DNA of 13,970 nucleotides from an uncultured archaeon (GTDB lineage Archaea; Asgardarchaeota; Lokiarchaeia; Sigyniarchaeales; SOKP01), in contig CAZBPC010000078.1 in NCBI GenBank assembly GCA_964493715.1, positions 1 through 13,970 of the forward strand, given 5' to 3'. This document shows, one piece after another, positions 439 through 10,435 of this stretch. The notes under the pieces are model-generated. The model did no database searches and was not told the origin of the DNA. It worked only from the letters and a program-made list of their open reading frames with translations. The translations under genes were made by a program, and so were the position numbers. Position 1 is the first letter of the stretch. Each line of letters starts with the position of its first letter.

Positions 439-502
439 TGATGATTATTGTTTAAAATTATATATATGCTTAGTTTCATATTAATGATCATATTAATCAT
501 CA
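439..502 (+). promoter_or_regulatory. Putative TATA-box promoter of the DUF35/thiolase operon with flanking repeats
   Basis: TTATATAT at 458-465; perfect 9-bp inverted repeat TGATGATTA (439-447) / TAATCATCA (494-502); direct repeat TCATATTAAT at 476-485 and 488-497. Confidence 0.45.
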
Positions 503-519
503 TAAAAAATGAAATCATA

Positions 520-981
520 ATGAGTGAAGAAAAAGTTATTGTTGCAAATAAGGGTCTTGTTCGGGCTGACTTTGCATTTTGGGTTGGTCAATATTTGGAC
601 AAATTCTATGATGGATTAGAAAATAAAAAGATCAGGGGAAATAAATGCTCAAAGTGTGGAGATGTGTTCGTTCCACCGAGAAAGATCTGTGGTAAGTGTA
701 ATGTAGTAATTCCATTAGAAGAAAATTGGGTTGATTTGCCCGAAACGGGAACTATCATGAATTTCACGACTACACCATATAGAGTTAATGATAGAAGCTC
801 GAGAAAGACAAAAGATTGGACAATTGGCATGATTCAGATTGATGGGAGCAATACTTCAATAATCTATAGATTATTGAATATGGAACCCGAAGATGTTAAA
901 ATTGGCATGAAAGTTAAAATCGAATGGAACGAAAATACGAAAGGAGACCCTTCGGATATCAAGGGTTTCACAAAAGTTTAG
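520..981 (+). CDS. DUF35-family Zn-ribbon/OB-fold protein (acyl-CoA-binding thiolase/aldolase partner)
   Basis: G.KCSKCG.VFVPPRKICGKC zinc ribbon followed by an OB fold (GTIMNFT...IQIDG...VKIGMKVKIEW). Start moved to ATG 520 (MSEEK); the 24 extra residues from 448 translate the AT-rich promoter region. Confidence 0.92.
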   Translation: MSEEKVIVANKGLVRADFAFWVGQYLDKFYDGLENKKIRGNKCSKCGDVFVPPRKICGKCNVVIPLEENWVDLPETGTIMNFTTTPYRVNDRSSRKTKDWTIGMIQIDGSNTSIIYRLLNMEPEDVKIGMKVKIEWNENTKGDPSDIKGFTKV

Positions 982-994
982 GAGGTGCGTAAGA

Positions 995-2134
995 ATGCAA
1001 AAAGTAGGAATAGTAGGGTATTATCAAGTAAAATTATATTCAGATGCGAATTATGGACGCTATGAAATGATATTTGAGGCATCTCGAGGTGCTTTAGATA
1101 AAGCTGGTCTTAAAAAGAAAGATATTTCGACAGTAATCTCGTGTACTAATGATTATTATGACGGTCGTACCATATCTAACTGCTTCACGGTTGAAGTTGG
1201 AGGTGGCTACATGGCTGATGAGAGTAAGGTTGAAATGGATGGTGCACATGCTGTATTATATGGGTTAATGCGAGTTCTTTCTGGAAACCATAATTTAGCA
1301 GTAGTTTGGGGCGGTAGCATGCCATCTTGTTATCCTTATCATACTGTGAGACTTTATGAGACAGATCCAACTTGGGAACGTTCTCTAGCATACGTCAATG
1401 ATATTACTTCAGCTGGTTTTCAGATGAGGGCGTATATGGAAAAATATGGAGTGACTGCTGAAGAGATTGCTAAAGTAGCAGTAAAGAACAAGAAAAATGC
1501 TGCTAAAAACCCATTAGCACTTAAAGAAGCTCAATTGGCAAATTTAACAATTAAAGATGTTTTAGATTCAGGAACATACGCTGATCCAGTCACTGAATTG
1601 ATGGTAGCTCCCCCTTGTGATGGAGTAGCAGCATTATTGTTAGCACCTGAAAAACAAGCGTTAAAGATCACTGATAAACCCGTTTGGATAACAGGCGTTG
1701 GATATAACCAAGATCCTTATTATCTTGGAGATCGGGACTTATCTGGATGCAAATCAATGAACTTAGCAGCAAAGATGGCATATGGTGGTGCTGGTATTAC
1801 TGATCCATATTCAGAAATTGATGTGGCGGAATTATTTGAATCTTATGCCCATGAAGAATTAATTTTCGCAGAAGAATTAGGTTTTGCTGATAAGGGAAAA
1901 GGAGCTGAAATTAATTCGGTAATAAATGGAGATTTAGCCATCAATCCTTCTGGAGGTGCCCTTGGTGGAAATCCTCCCTGTGCAACTGGTTTAATCCGCG
2001 TCATTGAAGCGGTTAAGCAATTAACGGGTGAGGCTGGGCAATATCAAGTTAAAGGAGCTAAAAGAGCTGTAGCATCGGGGCAAATAGGAATGTGTGCCCA
2101 AAATAATATATTATATGTATTGGAGGGGAATTAA
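995..2134 (+). CDS. Thiolase-fold (SCP-x type) protein, Ltp4-like, lacking the nucleophilic Cys
   Basis: RBS GGAGGTG at 981-987. Thiolase-fold motifs PPCDGVAA, IDVAEL, INPSGG, ATGLIR..EA..QL.GEAG. 'DYYDGRTIS...ESKVEMDGA' resembles actinobacterial Ltp4 (recalled as DYLAGRAFS...ESHVEMD.A). Confidence 0.88.
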   Translation: MQKVGIVGYYQVKLYSDANYGRYEMIFEASRGALDKAGLKKKDISTVISCTNDYYDGRTISNCFTVEVGGGYMADESKVEMDGAHAVLYGLMRVLSGNHNLAVVWGGSMPSCYPYHTVRLYETDPTWERSLAYVNDITSAGFQMRAYMEKYGVTAEEIAKVAVKNKKNAAKNPLALKEAQLANLTIKDVLDSGTYADPVTELMVAPPCDGVAALLLAPEKQALKITDKPVWITGVGYNQDPYYLGDRDLSGCKSMNLAAKMAYGGAGITDPYSEIDVAELFESYAHEELIFAEELGFADKGKGAEINSVINGDLAINPSGGALGGNPPCATGLIRVIEAVKQLTGEAGQYQVKGAKRAVASGQIGMCAQNNILYVLEGN

Positions 2135-2135
2135 A

Positions 2136-3383
2136 ATGGGAAGACAAGTAGCAATAGCTTCTGCTGGATTTAGTGAACATGCTTCAAAGCGTTCCGACGT
2201 GAGTATGCCTGAATTAGTTAGCGAAGCAATAGAGGATTGTTTGAAAAATGCTCCAAGTGTAGAACTTGGTGATATTGATGCATTTGTTAATGGAAATATG
2301 CCCGCTTTTGAGGGATCAAATATACCTGAATTATGGATGACCGATTGGATGGGTGCAAGAAATAAACCTTTATTACGAGTAACAACTGGTGGGACTACCG
2401 GTGGAACAGTTGCAATATCCGGCTATTATACTGTAGCTGCGGGATTACCCGGAGTTGACACGGTTTTGGCAGTAGCATTTGAACAGCAATCTCAAGGAGA
2501 TACCAGCGTTGGTTTAGCTAGCGTCGCTTATGGAGAAATTTCTATTCTCAACACGCTTGGAATTCCATACGATCAAATATCACGTTTGCTTTCAGCAGGA
2601 GCGGCTATTGGAGTAGCAGCTTACCAAGCAACGACCTATATGAATAAAACCAAAATTAAAGAAGAGGATTTAGCAAGAGTAGTTGTTCAAAATAGACGTA
2701 ATGCTGCAAAAACGTGGTGGGCACATTTAAAGATGCCTAATCTTACAATAGAAGAAGTTTTAGATACGCCATATGTTCAATACCCTTTACGATATGGAAT
2801 GGTATGTCCGGCAAGCGATGGAGTATGTGCCATGTTATTTACAACAGAAGAAAAGGCTAAAAATATGTGTGATATACCCGTATATGTTAATGGAGTCGCA
2901 AGTGTGGCTAATGAATCAGCAGTTTTAGGCTATGATGGTAGCGGTTCAGCTCAAGTTGATCCTTCAATGCAACTCGGAGCGATTAGATCCTCTGAGTTAG
3001 CTTATAAACAAGCCGGAATTTCTTTTCCAAGAAAAGAAATTGATTATGCTGAGGTATACGCACCTTTTCCGAATCAACAACTACTTTGGACAGAGAAACT
3101 CGGACTTTTCGAAGAAGGAACTGCTCCAGCAATGCATGAGGCTGGAGTAACAGATTTTAATGGCGAATTACCTGTGAATTGTTCGGGAGGTGTAAATGCA
3201 ACAAATGCAATTGGAGCATCTGCTATGGAAAGACCCGCAGAGGCAGCACTCCAAATAATGGGAAAAGCCAGTAATCAAGTGCCAAAAACGGTCCATACCG
3301 CAATCGGATCTGGATGGGGTGGTTCATTAAATCTCATAACTTTAATGGCTATGTCAGATCAGCCAAAAAGGCAATGGAGGTAG
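2136..3383 (+). CDS. Thiolase-fold (SCP-x type) protein, Ltp3-like, lacking the nucleophilic Cys
   Basis: Start moved to ATG 2136 (MGRQVAI), 1 nt after the upstream stop, with GGAGG at 2122-2126. 'KRSDVSMPELV.EAI...FEG..IPELWMTD.MGA.NKPLLRV.TGG..GG' and 'AEVYAPF...VNCSGGV..TNAIGAS' closely resemble actinobacterial Ltp3. Confidence 0.88.
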   Translation: MGRQVAIASAGFSEHASKRSDVSMPELVSEAIEDCLKNAPSVELGDIDAFVNGNMPAFEGSNIPELWMTDWMGARNKPLLRVTTGGTTGGTVAISGYYTVAAGLPGVDTVLAVAFEQQSQGDTSVGLASVAYGEISILNTLGIPYDQISRLLSAGAAIGVAAYQATTYMNKTKIKEEDLARVVVQNRRNAAKTWWAHLKMPNLTIEEVLDTPYVQYPLRYGMVCPASDGVCAMLFTTEEKAKNMCDIPVYVNGVASVANESAVLGYDGSGSAQVDPSMQLGAIRSSELAYKQAGISFPRKEIDYAEVYAPFPNQQLLWTEKLGLFEEGTAPAMHEAGVTDFNGELPVNCSGGVNATNAIGASAMERPAEAALQIMGKASNQVPKTVHTAIGSGWGGSLNLITLMAMSDQPKRQWR

Positions 3384-3389
3384 AGAAAA

Positions 3390-3917
3390 TTGTCAAAAAT
3401 GACTCAAAGGAAATCCTTAGATTATGTCAAGAAAGATTATATAAGAACTCGCACATTACCAGGAAGTTGGTATTTATCGAGTTACAAATACAAGTTTAAT
3501 ATTACACACATGAAACCTTTTTTAGAGAAATTAAAGGAGAAAAAACTTATAGCAAATCAATGTTCTTCCTGCAATAGGGTGTTTTATCCACCTCGATTTG
3601 TTTGCGGGAAATGTCTTGTTAAACCTGATAAATGGGTTGACATCAGAAATACTGCAAGCGTGTCAACATATGCAATTTCATATTTGAAAGATCCAGAAAC
3701 TGGAGAAGTTCAGCAAAGACCCATGGTATTAGTTCATCATGACGGAGCTGATACTGCAAGCATAGCTGAATTAAGCCCTGATTTAGATGTGAAAGATACT
3801 TATGTAGGAATGCCCATCATAGCTCATTGGAGAGATGAAAGAACTGGTGGATTAATGGATATTGAATATTATGATAAGTTTGACGATGATTCAGATGATC
3901 TTAGAAATAACGATTAA
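3390..3917 (+). CDS. Second DUF35-family Zn-ribbon/OB-fold protein
   Basis: TTG start with GGAGGT at 3376-3381 (ATG 3399 is an alternative). CSSCNRVFYPPRFVCGKC zinc ribbon; OB fold with ..DGAD...VGMP..A.W...RTG...DI.YY. Confidence 0.92.
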   Translation: MSKMTQRKSLDYVKKDYIRTRTLPGSWYLSSYKYKFNITHMKPFLEKLKEKKLIANQCSSCNRVFYPPRFVCGKCLVKPDKWVDIRNTASVSTYAISYLKDPETGEVQQRPMVLVHHDGADTASIAELSPDLDVKDTYVGMPIIAHWRDERTGGLMDIEYYDKFDDDSDDLRNND

Positions 3918-3924
3918 TAAGTCA

Positions 3925-3980
3925 ATTTTTTAGTTAATTTATAACTTTTTTTTTACTTTTTTAAAAATAAAAAATATAAA
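3925..3980. terminator. Probable bidirectional oligo-T terminator region between two convergent operons
   Basis: T-tracts on + (about 3926-3962) immediately followed by A-tracts (T-tracts on -), between the stops at 3917 and 4000. Confidence 0.55.
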
Positions 3981-3999
3981 AATATTTTAATTTGGAAAT

Positions 4000-4803
4000 T
4001 TAACCTCGATAATCGAGTAATATAACAGCATCAACGGTTAACTCGTAGTTCTCGTCTTCGTCATTGTCATGGATTAAAACTTTTTCCACTTCATCCAACT
4101 GTCCGATTATTTCTAAAAGGTCTGATTGCTGAAGTATTTTGACTTCTGATTGCTTCAATTTCATTCTCAATTCAACCGATCCAGGTATAGATTTTGCGGA
4201 GGTCAACAAAATAACTCTATTTGTAACTTCTGTCAACTTTAAAGCGAATTCTAAAGATTCATCACCCGCGTCAAGAATTAAAATTCTTTTATCTTTTAAA
4301 TCCTCAAGATTTGTGGGAATTTCCTTATAAACTCCCTTCCCAACGAACTTTTCGACTCCCAAGATGAGTTGCGTGTCTAACTGACAAGATGTGGTTATTT
4401 CCACTTCAGGTTCAGCTCCTGTACGATAATTATCTATTGCAGCTTTCAATGCATCTGCTGCTAAATTGGAACAATGCATTTTAATGGGAGGCAATCCGTC
4501 TAATTCTTCGGCTACATCCTTACGAGTAATCTCGTACGCCTTATCGAGAGTCATTCCTTTTGCCATTTCAGTAACCATTGATGATGTAGATACTGCTGAG
4601 CCGCAACCAAATGTTTTAAACTTAATATCATCTATTATTTCTTCTCCCTTGTCATTTTTTCCAACTTTAATGTAGATCCACATCAAATCTCCACAAACAG
4701 GATTCCCAACTTTTCCAACTCCATCTGCATCTTCAATTTCTCCAACATTTCTTGGGTTTCTAAAATGGTCCAATACCTTTTCTGAATAACTTGTTGATTT
4801 CAT
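4000..4803 (-). CDS. iscU: IscU/NifU_N Fe-S scaffold fused to a C-terminal degenerate thioredoxin-reductase-like NAD(P)-binding domain
   Basis: YSEKVLDHFRNPRNVG, GNPVC37GD39, FKTFGC67GSA and LPPIKMH110C111S form a complete IscU motif set. Residues ~147-267 (GVEKFVGKGV...KDKRILILDAGDESLEFALKL...VILL...VDAVIL) follow the TrxB NADPH domain. RBS GGAGAAGGTGA. Confidence 0.93.
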   Translation of the reverse strand: MKSTSYSEKVLDHFRNPRNVGEIEDADGVGKVGNPVCGDLMWIYIKVGKNDKGEEIIDDIKFKTFGCGSAVSTSSMVTEMAKGMTLDKAYEITRKDVAEELDGLPPIKMHCSNLAADALKAAIDNYRTGAEPEVEITTSCQLDTQLILGVEKFVGKGVYKEIPTNLEDLKDKRILILDAGDESLEFALKLTEVTNRVILLTSAKSIPGSVELRMKLKQSEVKILQQSDLLEIIGQLDEVEKVLIHDNDEDENYELTVDAVILLDYRG

Positions 4804-4822
4804 TTATTTATTCACCTTCTCC

Positions 4823-6004
4823 TTATTTATATTCTTTTAAAAATTCTGGTGGTGTCAATGGAGATAATTTTCTTAACCTTTTAACAACACCGGGTAAAAC
4901 TCCAATTGCTCTATCAATATCAGATTCTTTTGTAAATCTTCCTAAAGAAAAGAGTAAACTACCATGAGCTTCTTCATGTAATAATCCCATGGCTAGTAAT
5001 GTATGAGACGCTTCTAATGTTTTAGATGAGCATGCAGACCCAGTAGCACCACTAACATTTTCATCTCTCAAAGATAAGATTAAAGATTCACCTTCGATAT
5101 AATCAAATCTGAAGTGAGCATTATTAGGTAGACGTTTTTCTGGATGTCCATTTAAATGTGACTTAGGAATTGTCTCAAGCACGCCTGAAATTAACTTATC
5201 TCGTAATTTTTTTAAACTGGAAGCTTCTTCATTTATGACAGATTTCATGATTTCAGCAGCTTTTGCAAACCCTACTATACCAGTTATATTCTCAGAACCG
5301 GATCTCATGCCTTTCTCTTGACCACCCCCGATCATAATTGGATTGATACGCACTCCTTTTTTTAAGTATAAAGCCCCAACTCCTCTTGGACCATAAATAT
5401 CATTTGATGAAAACGTGATTAAATCAATCGGGATCTTTTGAACATCTATGGGAATAACCGCTTCACTCGCCACCGCATCTGTGTGGAATAAAATTTTCTT
5501 TTCATTAGCGATTTGAGCTATTTCTTTAATGGGTTGCAATGAACCAACTTCATTACTAGCTGTAGAAATAGATATTAAAGTTGTTTTATCTGTAATCAGT
5601 TTTTTTAATATATCGAGCTTAATTATTCCATATTGATCAACAGGAACTCTACTAACTGCAAAACCTTGTTGCTCTAAATATTTGCCAATATTTAATATTG
5701 AAATGTGCTCTATCTCAGATATGATGATATGATCTCCTTTACGCTTATTTTTTAATGCTGAACCTATTAGCGCCATGTTGTTTGATTCTGTTGCTCCAGA
5801 AGTGAATAAAATATCTTCTGCATCGGGTGCATTTATAAAGTCTGCAACTTTTTTACGAGACTGACTTAAGATTTCTGTAGCAACATCTCCGTGTCCGTGA
5901 AGTGATGCTGGATTAGCAAAATCTTTATTAAAATAAGGTAACATCTCTTTAACTACTCTTTCATCAACCGGTTTTGCCGCTTGATAATCCAAATATACAC
6001 TCAT
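4823..6004 (-). CDS. iscS: IscS/NifS-family (class V aminotransferase fold) cysteine-desulfurase-like protein with PLP Lys replaced by Asp
   Basis: YLDY..A.P, FANPASLH, FTSGATESNN, IEH, HTDAV, GGGQEKGMRSGSEN and TGSAC325SS are present. The canonical SGHKIYGPKG reads SSND202IYGPRG (GAT codon at 5399-5401). Confidence 0.93.
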   Translation of the reverse strand: MSVYLDYQAAKPVDERVVKEMLPYFNKDFANPASLHGHGDVATEILSQSRKKVADFINAPDAEDILFTSGATESNNMALIGSALKNKRKGDHIIISEIEHISILNIGKYLEQQGFAVSRVPVDQYGIIKLDILKKLITDKTTLISISTASNEVGSLQPIKEIAQIANEKKILFHTDAVASEAVIPIDVQKIPIDLITFSSNDIYGPRGVGALYLKKGVRINPIMIGGGQEKGMRSGSENITGIVGFAKAAEIMKSVINEEASSLKKLRDKLISGVLETIPKSHLNGHPEKRLPNNAHFRFDYIEGESLILSLRDENVSGATGSACSSKTLEASHTLLAMGLLHEEAHGSLLFSLGRFTKESDIDRAIGVLPGVVKRLRKLSPLTPPEFLKEYK

Positions 6005-6037
6005 CTTTATATCTCCCCTTTCTCTTAATATAATAAG

Positions 6038-6400
6038 CTAGAACCACATGGTTGCATCTGCCTCTAACACAAGATCATTCAATGTAGCTGCCCCTACAAT
6101 CTTAAGATTAGGGATCAATTCTACTTTATCCCAACCTAACATTCTTTTTGAGGCTTCGCATACATAAAATGTTACACCCATTTTTAATGCTTTATCGATC
6201 ATCTCTCGAACGCTCGGAAAACTTCCTAGTTTAATTTTTTCCGCTTCACCTGGTTTTAATACTTTCAAACTAGTTCCTAAATAATAAACAATCGCATTTA
6301 TATCCATTGCTTTAGCAGATTGAGCCAATACTAAAGGTGAATACTGGCGTTCTGGTTCGTGGCTTGTTTGAACATACAATATGGTTTTTTCTTCACTCAT
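6038..6400 (-). CDS. DsrE/DsrF/TusD-family sulfur relay protein
   Basis: 120 aa; A...GVTFYVC81EAS motif with the conserved Cys; ends GAATL..L..EAD....F; lies between tusA and iscS. Confidence 0.85.
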   Translation of the reverse strand: MSEEKTILYVQTSHEPERQYSPLVLAQSAKAMDINAIVYYLGTSLKVLKPGEAEKIKLGSFPSVREMIDKALKMGVTFYVCEASKRMLGWDKVELIPNLKIVGAATLNDLVLEADATMWF

Positions 6401-6412
6401 TTTTTACCACCA

Positions 6413-6661
6413 TTATTTTTTTTTTCTGAAAATAAAAGTTAAAAGATCATCTTCCTTCTTAAAATCCAAGACCTCTGTCTCAGTACGCTTTGCCCAGCGC
6501 AGTAAATCTTCTTCAGCGGCAGGATCATCAGCAAGAACTTTAAAGCATTGACCTATCTCAATAGATTCACTCATCTCTCTTACTTCGAATAAGGGTTCAG
6601 GACAAAATAAACCCGTTGTATCCAATTCTTTTATAATATCAAAATCTTTTTTTTCTGTCAT
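6413..6661 (-). CDS. tusA: TusA/SirA-family sulfur carrier
   Basis: LDTTGLFC20PEP (CPxP) and VLADDPAAEEDL..W motifs; 82 aa; RBS AGGTGGT upstream. Confidence 0.93.
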   Translation of the reverse strand: MTEKKDFDIIKELDTTGLFCPEPLFEVREMSESIEIGQCFKVLADDPAAEEDLLRWAKRTETEVLDFKKEDDLLTFIFRKKK

Positions 6662-6898
6662 GTCAAAACCACCTTTTTATAATAATTATTTGGATTTTAT
6701 ATTGGATAGTTTATATTATTACTTTTAACATCTAATATACTACTAGATAAAATGCTGTAAATAACTTCTCATTATAATTTAGTGATAAATTACATTGATG
6801 AGAAAATCCCAGAAAACAAAGATTAAAGCATCATTATAATTTATAAATTAGGTTTTATTCAATAATCTTCCTATTTTAGTATTTGATTAAAAAATTAA

Positions 6899-7984
6899 TC
6901 AAAAAAGGAATGGCTCACTGACTCCAAAATAGTTTTCAATAACTCTTAATATTTCATCTTTAGTACCAATGTACCCACATAATTGATGAGTAGCCTTTCC
7001 ATGTGAAGTATTATCTATTGTCTTAAATGGATTTAATTGAAGTTCTAATTCACCATAACGTAAAGAGGGCTTATTTGGAGATTCAGAATTATACGATTGG
7101 ATCACTCCAATTTCACTGTCAGGGTGATCTCTGGAAATATCAAAACAATCTTCCTGTTTCTTTGGAACATCATTGGACAGCTTGACGATGAAGCCAAATT
7201 CTTCAGTATTGGGGATTTTAATTACATACCCAATTTTTGGATATTTTTTAAAATCAATATCTTCAGGTCTAATTGCTAATTTATAGATATCATCTACATC
7301 GATTTTGAATGACACATGATCTGGGGCCTGTTTTATTCTATCCTCAGGAATGATTCTGAAATATGATAAAGGCTTACTATCAGATCTTGTTGGTATTATC
7401 ACAGTTCCAGGATTTTCTCGACCACCGCTAATTACGCATGCTAATGACCATCCATTTGCTTCAATGTTTGGTTGAAAAATTACACAATCATCGATGTATT
7501 CAATCCCACAGTAATCTGAAATACCTGTATTAATTGGTTCCTTAATAAGTTTGAACTGGCGAGTTATTTCACCTCGGAGAAACACTTTAGATATGTAATT
7601 ATTGAAAGCAATTGGTGATGAAATGGTACAAGATTTCACATCCTCTGCTAATATTTCATAATTCGCGGGATCTAACCCTTCTTGACATTTCCAGTTTTCG
7701 AAACTTTCGGGTCTTTCATAAAAAAAAGTTTTCTCAGGACTAATCCAATACCTATCTCCACCAATATCCCAAGATCTTGATTTGATATTCTCCGTTATAT
7801 TTGGGTTGATCCATAGAAGGTTATAAGAGTCATTTCTTGGAAATAATCCTAACACGCGCCCCCCATAATCTGAAATCAGAGCAGAACTATTCTCACTCAT
7901 AGATAATTCACAATACTGAAGGTGTTTATTTATGGAGTTAATTAAAGCTTCTTTTGTATAATAATTCATATTTAAATCAACCAT
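6899..7984 (-). CDS. Hypothetical protein, DUF6786-like (probable galactose-mutarotase-like beta-sandwich)
   Basis: Long ORF (361 aa; ATG 7969 is an alternative start). GGRVLG..., WINP, GGDRYWISPE and QSYN...YGELE resemble the DUF6786 family as recalled; not verified by search. Confidence 0.6.
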   Translation of the reverse strand: MVDLNMNYYTKEALINSINKHLQYCELSMSENSSALISDYGGRVLGLFPRNDSYNLLWINPNITENIKSRSWDIGGDRYWISPEKTFFYERPESFENWKCQEGLDPANYEILAEDVKSCTISSPIAFNNYISKVFLRGEITRQFKLIKEPINTGISDYCGIEYIDDCVIFQPNIEANGWSLACVISGGRENPGTVIIPTRSDSKPLSYFRIIPEDRIKQAPDHVSFKIDVDDIYKLAIRPEDIDFKKYPKIGYVIKIPNTEEFGFIVKLSNDVPKKQEDCFDISRDHPDSEIGVIQSYNSESPNKPSLRYGELELQLNPFKTIDNTSHGKATHQLCGYIGTKDEILRVIENYFGVSEPFLF

Positions 7985-10012: not shown

Positions 10013-10435
10013 TTAACTAGCCCTTTTCGTCATTTTATCTTGAATATCTTGAACAAAATATTTTTCAATTTTACATTGAAATTTATCGAACTTTGAGGGA
10101 TCTATTTTCGGTTTAATTAATTCAGCTCGATATTCTTCTATAAATAAACTCTCAATTGTAGATAAACGAGCCTTAATTGTTTTCCTTTTGATTTTTGTAG
10201 AGCATTTCAATATAAAATAGAGCTTATAAATTGTATTATGATAAAAATTATAATTATATTCTCCTAAAGTAATATTATTAATATGGTCTTGACTATCTTC
10301 AATCATGCTTCTTGCAAATGTTTGAATTGTTTGGAAAAAACCACTAAGTAAGTCTGATTTAGACTTTTCCTCTGTTGAGAAGGTATATAAAGGTTTTCCT
10401 TCCCAATCAAGCACCCAAAATTCTTCAGCAATCAT
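10013..10435 (-). CDS. Longin-like domain protein (Asgard eukaryotic-signature type)
   Basis: FWVLDWEGKPLY (beta-hairpin), DLLSGFFQTIQTFA (helix), INNITLGEYNYNF...LYFIL (strands), L..I...FIEEY (helix), F..F...I. This is the beta-beta-alpha-beta-beta-beta-alpha-alpha longin order and the pattern common in Lokiarchaeia longin-like proteins. Confidence 0.75.
   Translation of the reverse strand: MIAEEFWVLDWEGKPLYTFSTEEKSKSDLLSGFFQTIQTFARSMIEDSQDHINNITLGEYNYNFYHNTIYKLYFILKCSTKIKRKTIKARLSTIESLFIEEYRAELIKPKIDPSKFDKFQCKIEKYFVQDIQDKMTKRAS

Follow-up and report, generated by a model that had tools for sequence, protein, structure and literature searches.

An IscS lacking the catalytic lysine is encoded with TusA, DsrE and IscU in an Asgard archaeon: a candidate persulfide route to iron-sulfur clusters

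The stretch of DNA analyzed here (hereafter the window) is a contig of 13,970 nucleotides (nt), contig C78 of a 3.68-Mb Asgard genome (G000), and carries the genes tusA, dsrE, iscS and iscU co-oriented on its minus strand between positions 4000 and 6661. The encoded IscS lacks the lysine to which pyridoxal phosphate (PLP) binds, and in a census of 228 unique IscS homologues a gene for TusA and/or DsrE was found nearby for 119 of the 128 copies without this lysine (Lys-less) but for 0 of the 100 copies that retain it (Lys-bearing). An enrichment of this kind had been set as a test in a first-pass annotation of the window, and its outcome is in favor of the idea behind it. The pairing suggests that sulfur may enter iron-sulfur (Fe-S) clusters without cysteine breakdown, and it recurs across many anaerobic archaea and bacteria. 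The questions addressed are the sulfur source of anaerobes that have no active cysteine desulfurase and the role of the dead IscS of the Archaeoglobus fulgidus type. The near-exclusive linkage points to two candidate sulfur donors and, in some lineages, to a built-in reductase.

IscS genes with flanks of 1.5 to 5 kb were taken from 199 genomes of the window's phylum (Asgard), a mixed sample of archaeal and bacterial contigs (80 loci), 301 genomes of the phylum holding a Methanoperedens metagenome-assembled genome (MAG; phylum Halobacteriota) together with one family within it, 301 genomes from the phylum to which a "Deltaproteobacteria" MAG (G202) belongs, and five genomes with three iscSU copies each, and identical and partial sequences were dropped. 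Both tusA and dsrE accompanied 71 of the Lys-less copies, tusA only 41, dsrE only 7 and neither gene 9, whereas all 100 Lys-bearing copies had neither. Split by source, the counts with tusA/dsrE were 56/61 Lys-less versus 0/10 Lys-bearing copies in the Asgard set, 14/17 versus 0/62 in the mixed contig sample, 28/28 versus 0/2 in the Halobacteriota set and 11/12 (unique sequences) versus 0/17 in the phylum of G202. The cleanest control of the linkage is the contrast within genomes: in the five three-copy Halobacteriota genomes, tusA/dsrE lay at the Lys-less copy in 5/5 cases and at 0/10 of the Lys-bearing copies. Likewise, none of ten Lys-bearing IscS paralogues in the window's own family, including the one in the window's genome, has tusA/dsrE beside it.

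Lys-less copies span Asgard archaea, Halobacteriota, Thermoproteota and several bacterial phyla, and the arrangement of the genes differs among them. Archaeal loci read tusA-(dsrE)-iscS*-iscU, where the asterisk marks the Lys-less form. Most of the bacterial loci have iscS*-iscU-dsrE-tusA, in which DsrE is of the PF13686 type (dsrE2-like), and in a Nitrospirota-type group the order is Rrf2 regulator (PF02082)-tusA-iscS*-iscU. The linkage of tusA/dsrE with Lys-less IscS thus outlasts rearrangement of gene order, change of DsrE subtype and turnover of flanking genes. Within it, TusA is constant and DsrE optional: dsrE was found in about six of ten related operons, and its presence varies even inside the window's genus.

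The window's iscS (4823-6004, minus strand, 393 aa) encodes an Aminotran_5 protein (E = 9e-75 in Pfam) that scores under every NCBIfam cysteine desulfurase cut-off (461.4 versus 530.75 bits for NifS, 392.3 versus 643.2 bits for IscS). Its best match in the PDB is A. fulgidus IscS2 (4EB5, E = 6e-135), with which it shares the motif SSNDIYGP exactly (FSSNDIYGP in the window); a second deposited A. fulgidus IscS2 sequence, 4R5F, reads SSNKIYGP, with Lys at the PLP column. Alignment to these two sequences places Asp202 in the PLP-lysine column and Asn201 in the preceding His column. Compared with 74 Lys-bearing homologues, the Lys-less sequences carry the pocket changes Q179A, H201N, K202D and A102S and retain 80 of 95 otherwise conserved columns. 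The Schiff-base lysine of class-I cysteine desulfurases is therefore missing from the window IscS and their mobile-loop cysteine is present as Cys325 (in GSACSS), which is the protein's only cysteine and is conserved in 71/71 sequences. A non-Lys residue at the PLP column, a retained loop cysteine and an adjacent IscU are together the marks of the non-catalytic A. fulgidus type, and the window IscS falls inside a D-type clade of 103 sequences with a support of 0.999. Its close homologues bear the source names Lokiarchaeota and Promethearchaeota, which assign the window's genome to the Asgard archaea. At the PLP-lysine column the 128 Lys-less copies have D (100), Q (16), T (5), E (2), S (2), A (2) or P (1).

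Because the PLP lysine and neighboring pocket residues are replaced, the window IscS is predicted to be unable to desulfurate cysteine. The IscS of A. fulgidus has no desulfurase activity and its cysteine is a ligand of the [2Fe-2S] cluster of IscU (PMC7585200, PMC13066941; the work on this pair is cited in PMC7585200 as Marinoni 2012, Yamanaka 2013 and Pagnier 2014). A Lys-less IscS is thus already known and is not new in itself.

The window TusA (6413-6661, minus strand, 82 aa) matches PF01206 (E = 5.9e-18; 64.9 bits, Pfam cut-off 28.6) and contains the family motif G-x-x-C-P-x-P with its sulfur-binding cysteine, Cys20 (in DTTGLFCPEP). It aligns with Escherichia coli TusA (1DCJ/3LVJ_C, E = 7e-7), Cys20 standing opposite Cys19 of that protein, and has a second cysteine, C39. 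Cys20 was invariant among the TusA neighbors of Lys-less IscS, first in 53/53 and then in 93/93 sequences. With 44.5 bits against a cut-off of 78, the protein scores below the E. coli-type equivalog NF001423, and by sequence it is a member of the family that does not classify as the tRNA-thiolation orthologue. A selenium-related (YedF) reading was rejected, the match reaching just 28.8 bits against a cut-off of 110. A predicted complex of two IscS* copies with TusA scored 0.27 against a mark of 0.32, a score obtained without controls that speaks neither for nor against binding.

DsrE (6038-6400, minus strand, 120 aa) is a single-subunit, DsrE3-like protein that matches PF02635 (E = 2.3e-14; 54 bits, cut-off 22.7) and PF13686 (E = 5e-14) in Pfam. 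Its best PDB relative is 3MC3 (E = 4e-12), which is Sulfolobus solfataricus SSO1125, a DsrE3A (PMC11094781). Cys81 (in YVCEAS) is its sole cysteine, so that the protein lacks the second cysteine of the Cys-X7-Cys motif conserved in the DsrE3A subgroup (PMC4175335); Cys81 and Ser84 are kept in 61 of 62 relatives, and the remaining one has a gap there. Proteins of the DsrE3 type are homotrimers. They take sulfur from polysulfide and hand it unidirectionally to TusA in vitro (PMC11094781, PMC4175335), a direction that fits a relay toward IscS and IscU.

The iscU open reading frame (ORF; 4000-4803, minus strand, 267 aa) encodes a NifU_N scaffold fused to a C-terminal extension. The scaffold domain, residues 1 to about 133 (4405..4803, minus strand), matches NifU_N with E = 1.6e-46 and exceeds the TIGR03419 cut-off (196.2 versus 187.9 bits). 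It is related to 7C8M (E = 1.6e-52) and 4EB5_C (E = 1.3e-48) in the PDB, and Foldseek recovered the same two entries at E of about 1e-17. The three cluster cysteines and the accompanying Asp and His of an IscU scaffold are all in place (C37, D39, C67, H110, C111), and C37, D39, C67 and C111 are kept in 95 of 97 relatives, the other two being fragments.

In the AlphaFold model of the fusion (mean pLDDT 85.7) the extension is folded as a separate domain (residues ~145-267; 4003..4371, minus strand), for which Foldseek returned 3F8D, 2ZBW and 3AB1 (E of about 1e-10 over some 125 columns). As modeled, this domain has the fold of the NADPH-binding subdomain of thioredoxin reductase (TrxR) or TrxR-type ferredoxin-NADP reductase (FNR), and weak TrxR matches were also found at the sequence level (TIGR01292, E = 2e-9; 2ZBW, E = 1.5e-6). 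Among the 97 unique IscU proteins encoded beside a D-type IscS, 59 have a C-terminal domain like that of the window; 54 of these are of ~250-299 aa, four are long fusions and one is a fragment. The long fusions (L050:5403-6746, L169:159-1490, L176:2660-3991 and L180:164-1483; ~440 aa each) contain a complete TrxR-type flavoprotein (Pyr_redox_2, E from 1e-37 to 3e-44) whose FAD and NAD(P)H motifs are intact and which has no CxxC pair, and each adjoins a Lys-less IscS. The fused flavoprotein may supply the scaffold with electrons from within the same protein. The window's domain aligns with the central part of these flavoproteins. The FAD-binding segments (the N-terminal GxGxxG and the C-terminal GD motif) are absent from the window IscU fusion, and the NAD(P)H motif GxGxxA is degenerate in it, reading LDAGDES versus VGGGNSA in the full-length fusions. 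In another Asgard genome, iscU (L052:4671-6254) is split by an intein that contains a LAGLIDADG homing endonuclease (matches to Intein_splicing and LAGLIDADG_3), inserted after about residue 39 and thus near the first cluster cysteine.

The ORF coordinates leave gaps of 12 nt between tusA and dsrE, 33 nt between dsrE and iscS and 19 nt between iscS and iscU. The four co-oriented genes and their spacing are hence as the first-pass annotation had described them; the cysteines that it had listed (TusA C20, DsrE C81, IscS C325 and IscU C37/C67/C111) lie where it had placed them, and its IscS without the PLP lysine is confirmed by Asp202, as in A. fulgidus IscS2. None of the other IscS loci compared contained the window's DUF6786 protein or its DUF35-like protein, and because neighboring genes are not kept beside the cluster elsewhere, the four genes can be treated as a unit. 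Upstream of tusA lies an AT-rich intergenic region of 237 nt (6662..6898, minus strand), likely the promoter region of the four-gene unit as predicted from sequence, in which AGGTGG at 6669-6674 resembles a Shine-Dalgarno site and lies 7 nt ahead of the tusA ATG. Past the iscU stop codon (TAA, 4000-4002), a T-rich tract (3950..3999, minus strand) is a possible archaeal terminator, and the gene beyond it is on the opposite strand, convergent with iscU. Contigs from four metatranscriptome libraries (95-99% identical) span portions of all four genes, and single contigs bridge the iscS-iscU and dsrE-iscS junctions; none bridged the DsrE-TusA junction by a 31-letter criterion. None of these contigs lay on 3800-4120 or 6582-7000, and they are uninformative on transcript ends. 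Since such libraries may contain DNA, this evidence of expression is weak. In our best reading, the four genes form one operon, a variant Fe-S cluster assembly module of the iron-sulfur cluster (ISC)/minimal iron-sulfur (MIS) type.

In the relay that we propose, IscS* would act as a partner of IscU that lends its mobile-loop Cys325, as A. fulgidus IscS2 does. The DsrE3-like protein would take up sulfane sulfur on Cys81, from polysulfide or another persulfide donor, and hand it to Cys20 of TusA, and TusA would deliver the persulfide sulfur to Cys325 of IscS or straight to the cysteines of IscU. The sulfur would then be reduced on IscS*/IscU and joined with iron into a [2Fe-2S] cluster. DsrE would be an optional booster of this relay and TusA its constant component, and in some lineages the FNR-like flavoprotein fused to IscU would serve as the reductant. 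That such a relay from DsrE through TusA to IscS Cys325/IscU feeds cluster assembly is a proposition on which we stand midway between belief and doubt. The first-pass annotation had likewise suggested a relay running in reverse; the conserved linkage, the direction of transfer in DsrE3 proteins and the flavoprotein fusions all fit it, whereas the flow of sulfur into IscS/IscU and the loading of Cys325, like the sulfur source and the electron donor, are steps that we infer.

Several observations weigh against this relay. Homologues were sampled by similarity to the query and not at random. Neither tusA nor dsrE was seen at nine Lys-less loci: at L031 and L073 the contig ends just upstream, L136 and L233 have short flanks, and L051, L052, L053, L055 and L138 lack both genes with 3 kb of flank or more. 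On the IscS of E. coli, TusA and IscU exclude each other, and IscU displaces TusA (PMC2854127); by analogy, such exclusion would complicate delivery by TusA to a stable IscS-IscU complex. The missing FAD segments and the noncanonical nucleotide motif suggest that the window's own IscU C-terminal domain is not a reductase; it is probably a degenerate remnant of a flavoprotein and probably not redox-active. The genome also has a loose second Fe-S neighborhood on contig C10 (G000:C10:19249-31204) with a plain IscU of 129 aa (19249-19635), a Lys-bearing IscS (SASAHKLYGPKG; 26032-27195) and a SufB-like gene (30545-31204). With a normal IscS in the genome, cysteine-derived sulfur could load TusA, and the label "cysteine-independent" that the first-pass annotation had attached to the system is not supported for this organism. 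Most genomes of the window's family have both Lys-less and Lys-bearing IscS, and the Asgard genomes that have no Lys-bearing IscS possess SufS-family proteins (343-416 bits to TIGR01979, cut-off 475.1).

The history of the lysine loss adds to these points. In free trees (FastTree and quick IQ-TREE) the Lys-less sequences form two to three separate well-supported clades. Approximately unbiased (AU) tests did not reject a single Lys-less clade (p = 0.42), nor did they with a third group included (p = 0.56), the constrained tree being 7 log-likelihood units better. We have therefore dropped the claim that the lysine was lost convergently, in independent events, and on sequence grounds the shared changes Q179A, H201N and A102S would fit one origin equally well as convergence. 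If there was a single ancestral event, the 119 linked loci are not independent observations. What stands is the retention of the linkage over long times and across domains, together with the within-genome contrast.

The linkage could also be a historical relic, frozen since one ancient operon and now functionally uncoupled, and this would be compatible with the single origin left standing by the AU tests. We nevertheless give this explanation scarcely any credence, given that the linkage has been kept across archaeal and bacterial phyla despite changed gene order, DsrE subtype and flanks, and that the carrier and ligand cysteines are invariant. A different possibility, of a kind already put forward for anaerobes rich in sulfide, is that free sulfide reaches the Lys-less IscS-IscU pair directly, TusA and DsrE serving to buffer or sense reactive sulfur or to regulate the module. 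Sulfide is an accepted source of Fe-S sulfur in methanogens and is described as usable by both MIS and SMS (PMC13066941, PMC7585200); DNA of the window occurs in salt-marsh and sediment metagenomes, and both the dispensability of DsrE in about four of ten operons and the degenerate FNR-like domain of the window would agree with a sulfide supply. We consider this unlikely, though a contender to be taken seriously, because it leaves unexplained why carriers with invariant cysteines are linked to Lys-less and not to Lys-bearing copies, and why IscU has a full flavoprotein reductase as its fusion partner in four relatives. Sulfur at the S0 level needs a reductant and sulfide does not, so that the fusion of IscU to a reductase favors the persulfide route.

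The remaining alternatives keep sulfur carriers but change where the sulfur comes from or goes. Cysteine might still be the source, with a separate desulfurase (the Lys-bearing IscS on C10 here, SufS-like proteins elsewhere) persulfidating TusA and with TusA/DsrE shuttling the sulfur to a second scaffold, IscS*-IscU. Transfer from IscS to TusA is established in E. coli (PMC2854127), and the coexistence of both IscS types in the window's genome and most of its family, as well as the SufS-family proteins of other Asgard genomes, would allow it. The 0/100 count of tusA/dsrE at Lys-bearing IscS genes speaks against this explanation, as does the finding that Lys-less IscS is the sole strong Aminotran_5 member in 5 of 6 tested Halobacteriota genomes with the operon; in one of the genomes examined (G250), the weaker Aminotran_5 matches are an aminotransferase and SepCysS. 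Since those Halobacteriota have no other convincing cysteine desulfurase, their sulfur must be supplied by a donor of another kind. We regard the cysteine-based scheme as quite unlikely. TusA and DsrE could instead be acceptors through which the module exports sulfur, for instance from a cluster or a persulfide on IscS*-IscU, to thiolation pathways such as those of tRNA, molybdopterin or thiamine, by analogy with the flow from IscS through TusA to TusBCD in E. coli (PMC2854127). The weak match of the window TusA to the E. coli equivalog could be read in the same way. Export is improbable in our estimation: a Lys-less IscS makes no persulfide from cysteine, to judge by the A. fulgidus data in PMC7585200. 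No thiolation enzymes were seen in the conserved unit, and the genes flanking it in the window are not kept elsewhere. Moreover, some bacterial versions sit behind the gene for an Rrf2-family regulator (PF02082), which may be IscR-like and would in that case point to Fe-S biogenesis.

The persulfide relay has parallels in several known systems. Like the A. fulgidus IscS2-IscU pair (PDB 4EB5/4EB7/4HVK), the window has the SSND motif, the loop cysteine and a neighboring IscU. In contrast to the available text of the published A. fulgidus work (PMC7585200), which considers just the two proteins and names no definite sulfur donor, the window adds tusA and dsrE, and its IscU has an extra C-terminal domain. 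A. fulgidus itself is outside the genome samples drawn; in Archaeoglobaceae loci (L170, L184, L187-L189) tusA, sometimes plus dsrE, lies directly upstream. Three of these (L170, L188 and L189) were considered as the A. fulgidus locus and set aside, since scores of 580-597 bits to 4EB5 mark them as relatives and not the same protein. The MIS system (MisS/MisU) resembles the unit in its two-gene core of IscS-like and IscU-like proteins, its occurrence in anaerobic archaea and bacteria and its claimed use of sulfide (PMC13066941). According to the parts of that review available, MIS was described by Garcia et al. 2022, is without additional components and is the least studied system, whereas the Lys-less subset described here includes TusA, alone or together with DsrE, and in some cases an FNR-like domain as a fusion.

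The E. coli Tus relay likewise combines IscS, TusA and a DsrE-family partner, and TusA Cys19/20 meets the loop cysteine of IscS (PMC2854127). There, however, the sulfur originates from an active PLP enzyme and is accepted by TusA for tRNA thiolation (PMC2854127); since the window IscS is predicted to be incapable of acting as the source, we propose that the flow is reversed, toward IscU. As in the DsrE3/TusA cascades of Metallosphaera cuprina (PMC4175335) and of the sHdr pathway (PMC11094781), a single-subunit DsrE3-like protein stands beside TusA and the carrier cysteines are conserved. Whereas those cascades lead into dissimilatory sulfur oxidation (sHdr, rDsr), the partner here is IscS*-IscU and no sHdr or rDsr genes were found in the window or the conserved unit; the window DsrE also differs from DsrE3A in its missing second cysteine. 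Methanosarcina acetivorans has three iscSU copies, of which IscS1 is reported to be without the catalytic lysine (PMC7585200). The word TusA occurs 0 times in the available text of that paper on IscSU1, whereas in the three-copy Halobacteriota studied here the Lys-less copy is preceded by tusA-dsrE. A literature search returned no paper tying TusA or DsrE to Lys-less IscS or IscU operons, although an earlier mention is possible. Of the combination for which the first-pass annotation knew of no description, the Lys-less IscS was thus known beforehand, and it is the dedicated relay around a dead IscS, and its breadth, that appear to be undescribed.

On a broader view, which we offer tentatively and hold at somewhat less than an even chance, Lys-less IscS, IscU and TusA, with or without DsrE, would constitute an ancient and widespread PLP-independent sulfur route to Fe-S clusters, along which sulfane sulfur moves as protein persulfide from DsrE through TusA and the IscS loop cysteine to IscU and is reduced with the help of an FNR-like partner. 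Anaerobes devoid of cysteine desulfurase, among them the tested Archaeoglobaceae genomes, would have in it their functioning ISC-type system, and it may stand near the root of the desulfurase-driven ISC machinery that eukaryotes inherited via Asgard and bacterial ancestors. Asgard archaea have two ISC-type systems, whose sulfur logic would differ, a point of relevance to reconstructions of how Fe-S clusters were made when eukaryotes arose.

Some loci in the census depart from the usual arrangements. The Asgard genome G002 has two Lys-less IscS loci, one of which is without TusA or DsrE; at the other (L054) a single TusA, a tandem TusA-TusA fusion of 158 aa (genes at 2592-3065 and 2196-2486) and DsrE lie upstream. 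In two complete Asgard genomes (G012 and G023; loci L060 and L061), the place of iscU behind tusA-dsrE-iscS* is taken by a SufS-family gene that scores 415.6 bits to TIGR01979, under the cut-off of 475.1. A partial Lys-bearing IscS (L171:3-707), left out of the census for its length, is divergent beside the tusA of a Lys-less operon, and in a second Halobacteriota locus (L156) a SufS-like gene is divergent just upstream of the tusA of the Lys-less operon; these two cases hint, by gene position, that an active desulfurase is sometimes co-located with the Lys-less operon. Contigs labeled as Actinomycetes, Actinobacteria, Spirochaetota and Nitrospinota MAGs (L077, L125, L128 and L078, respectively) carry tusA-(dsrE)-iscS*-iscU loci. 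At the first three, IscS is 60-62% identical to that of the window, IscU has the C-terminal domain and the locus resembles the Thorarchaeota locus L076; the Nitrospinota locus has an IscS with 54% identity, and its short downstream flank showed no IscU. These four loci may reflect horizontal transfer or binning error; the L077 contig is 213 kb long.

Elsewhere in the window's genome a further IscU/SufU-like ORF lies at C83:6698-7153. On the plus strand of the window, positions 448-3917 hold two thiolase-fold genes (995-2134 and 2094-3383, overlapping by 41 nt) bracketed by two genes of the DUF35-type zinc-ribbon/OB-fold (448-981 and 3390-3917), an arrangement that we take to resemble the archaeal acetoacetyl-CoA thiolase/HMG-CoA synthase/DUF35 complex. 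On the minus strand, the 140-aa protein encoded at 10013-10435 has a weak longin match (Fuz_longin_1, E = 2e-5, slightly under the cut-off), which might be a faint eukaryote-like signature of the sort expected in Asgard archaea.

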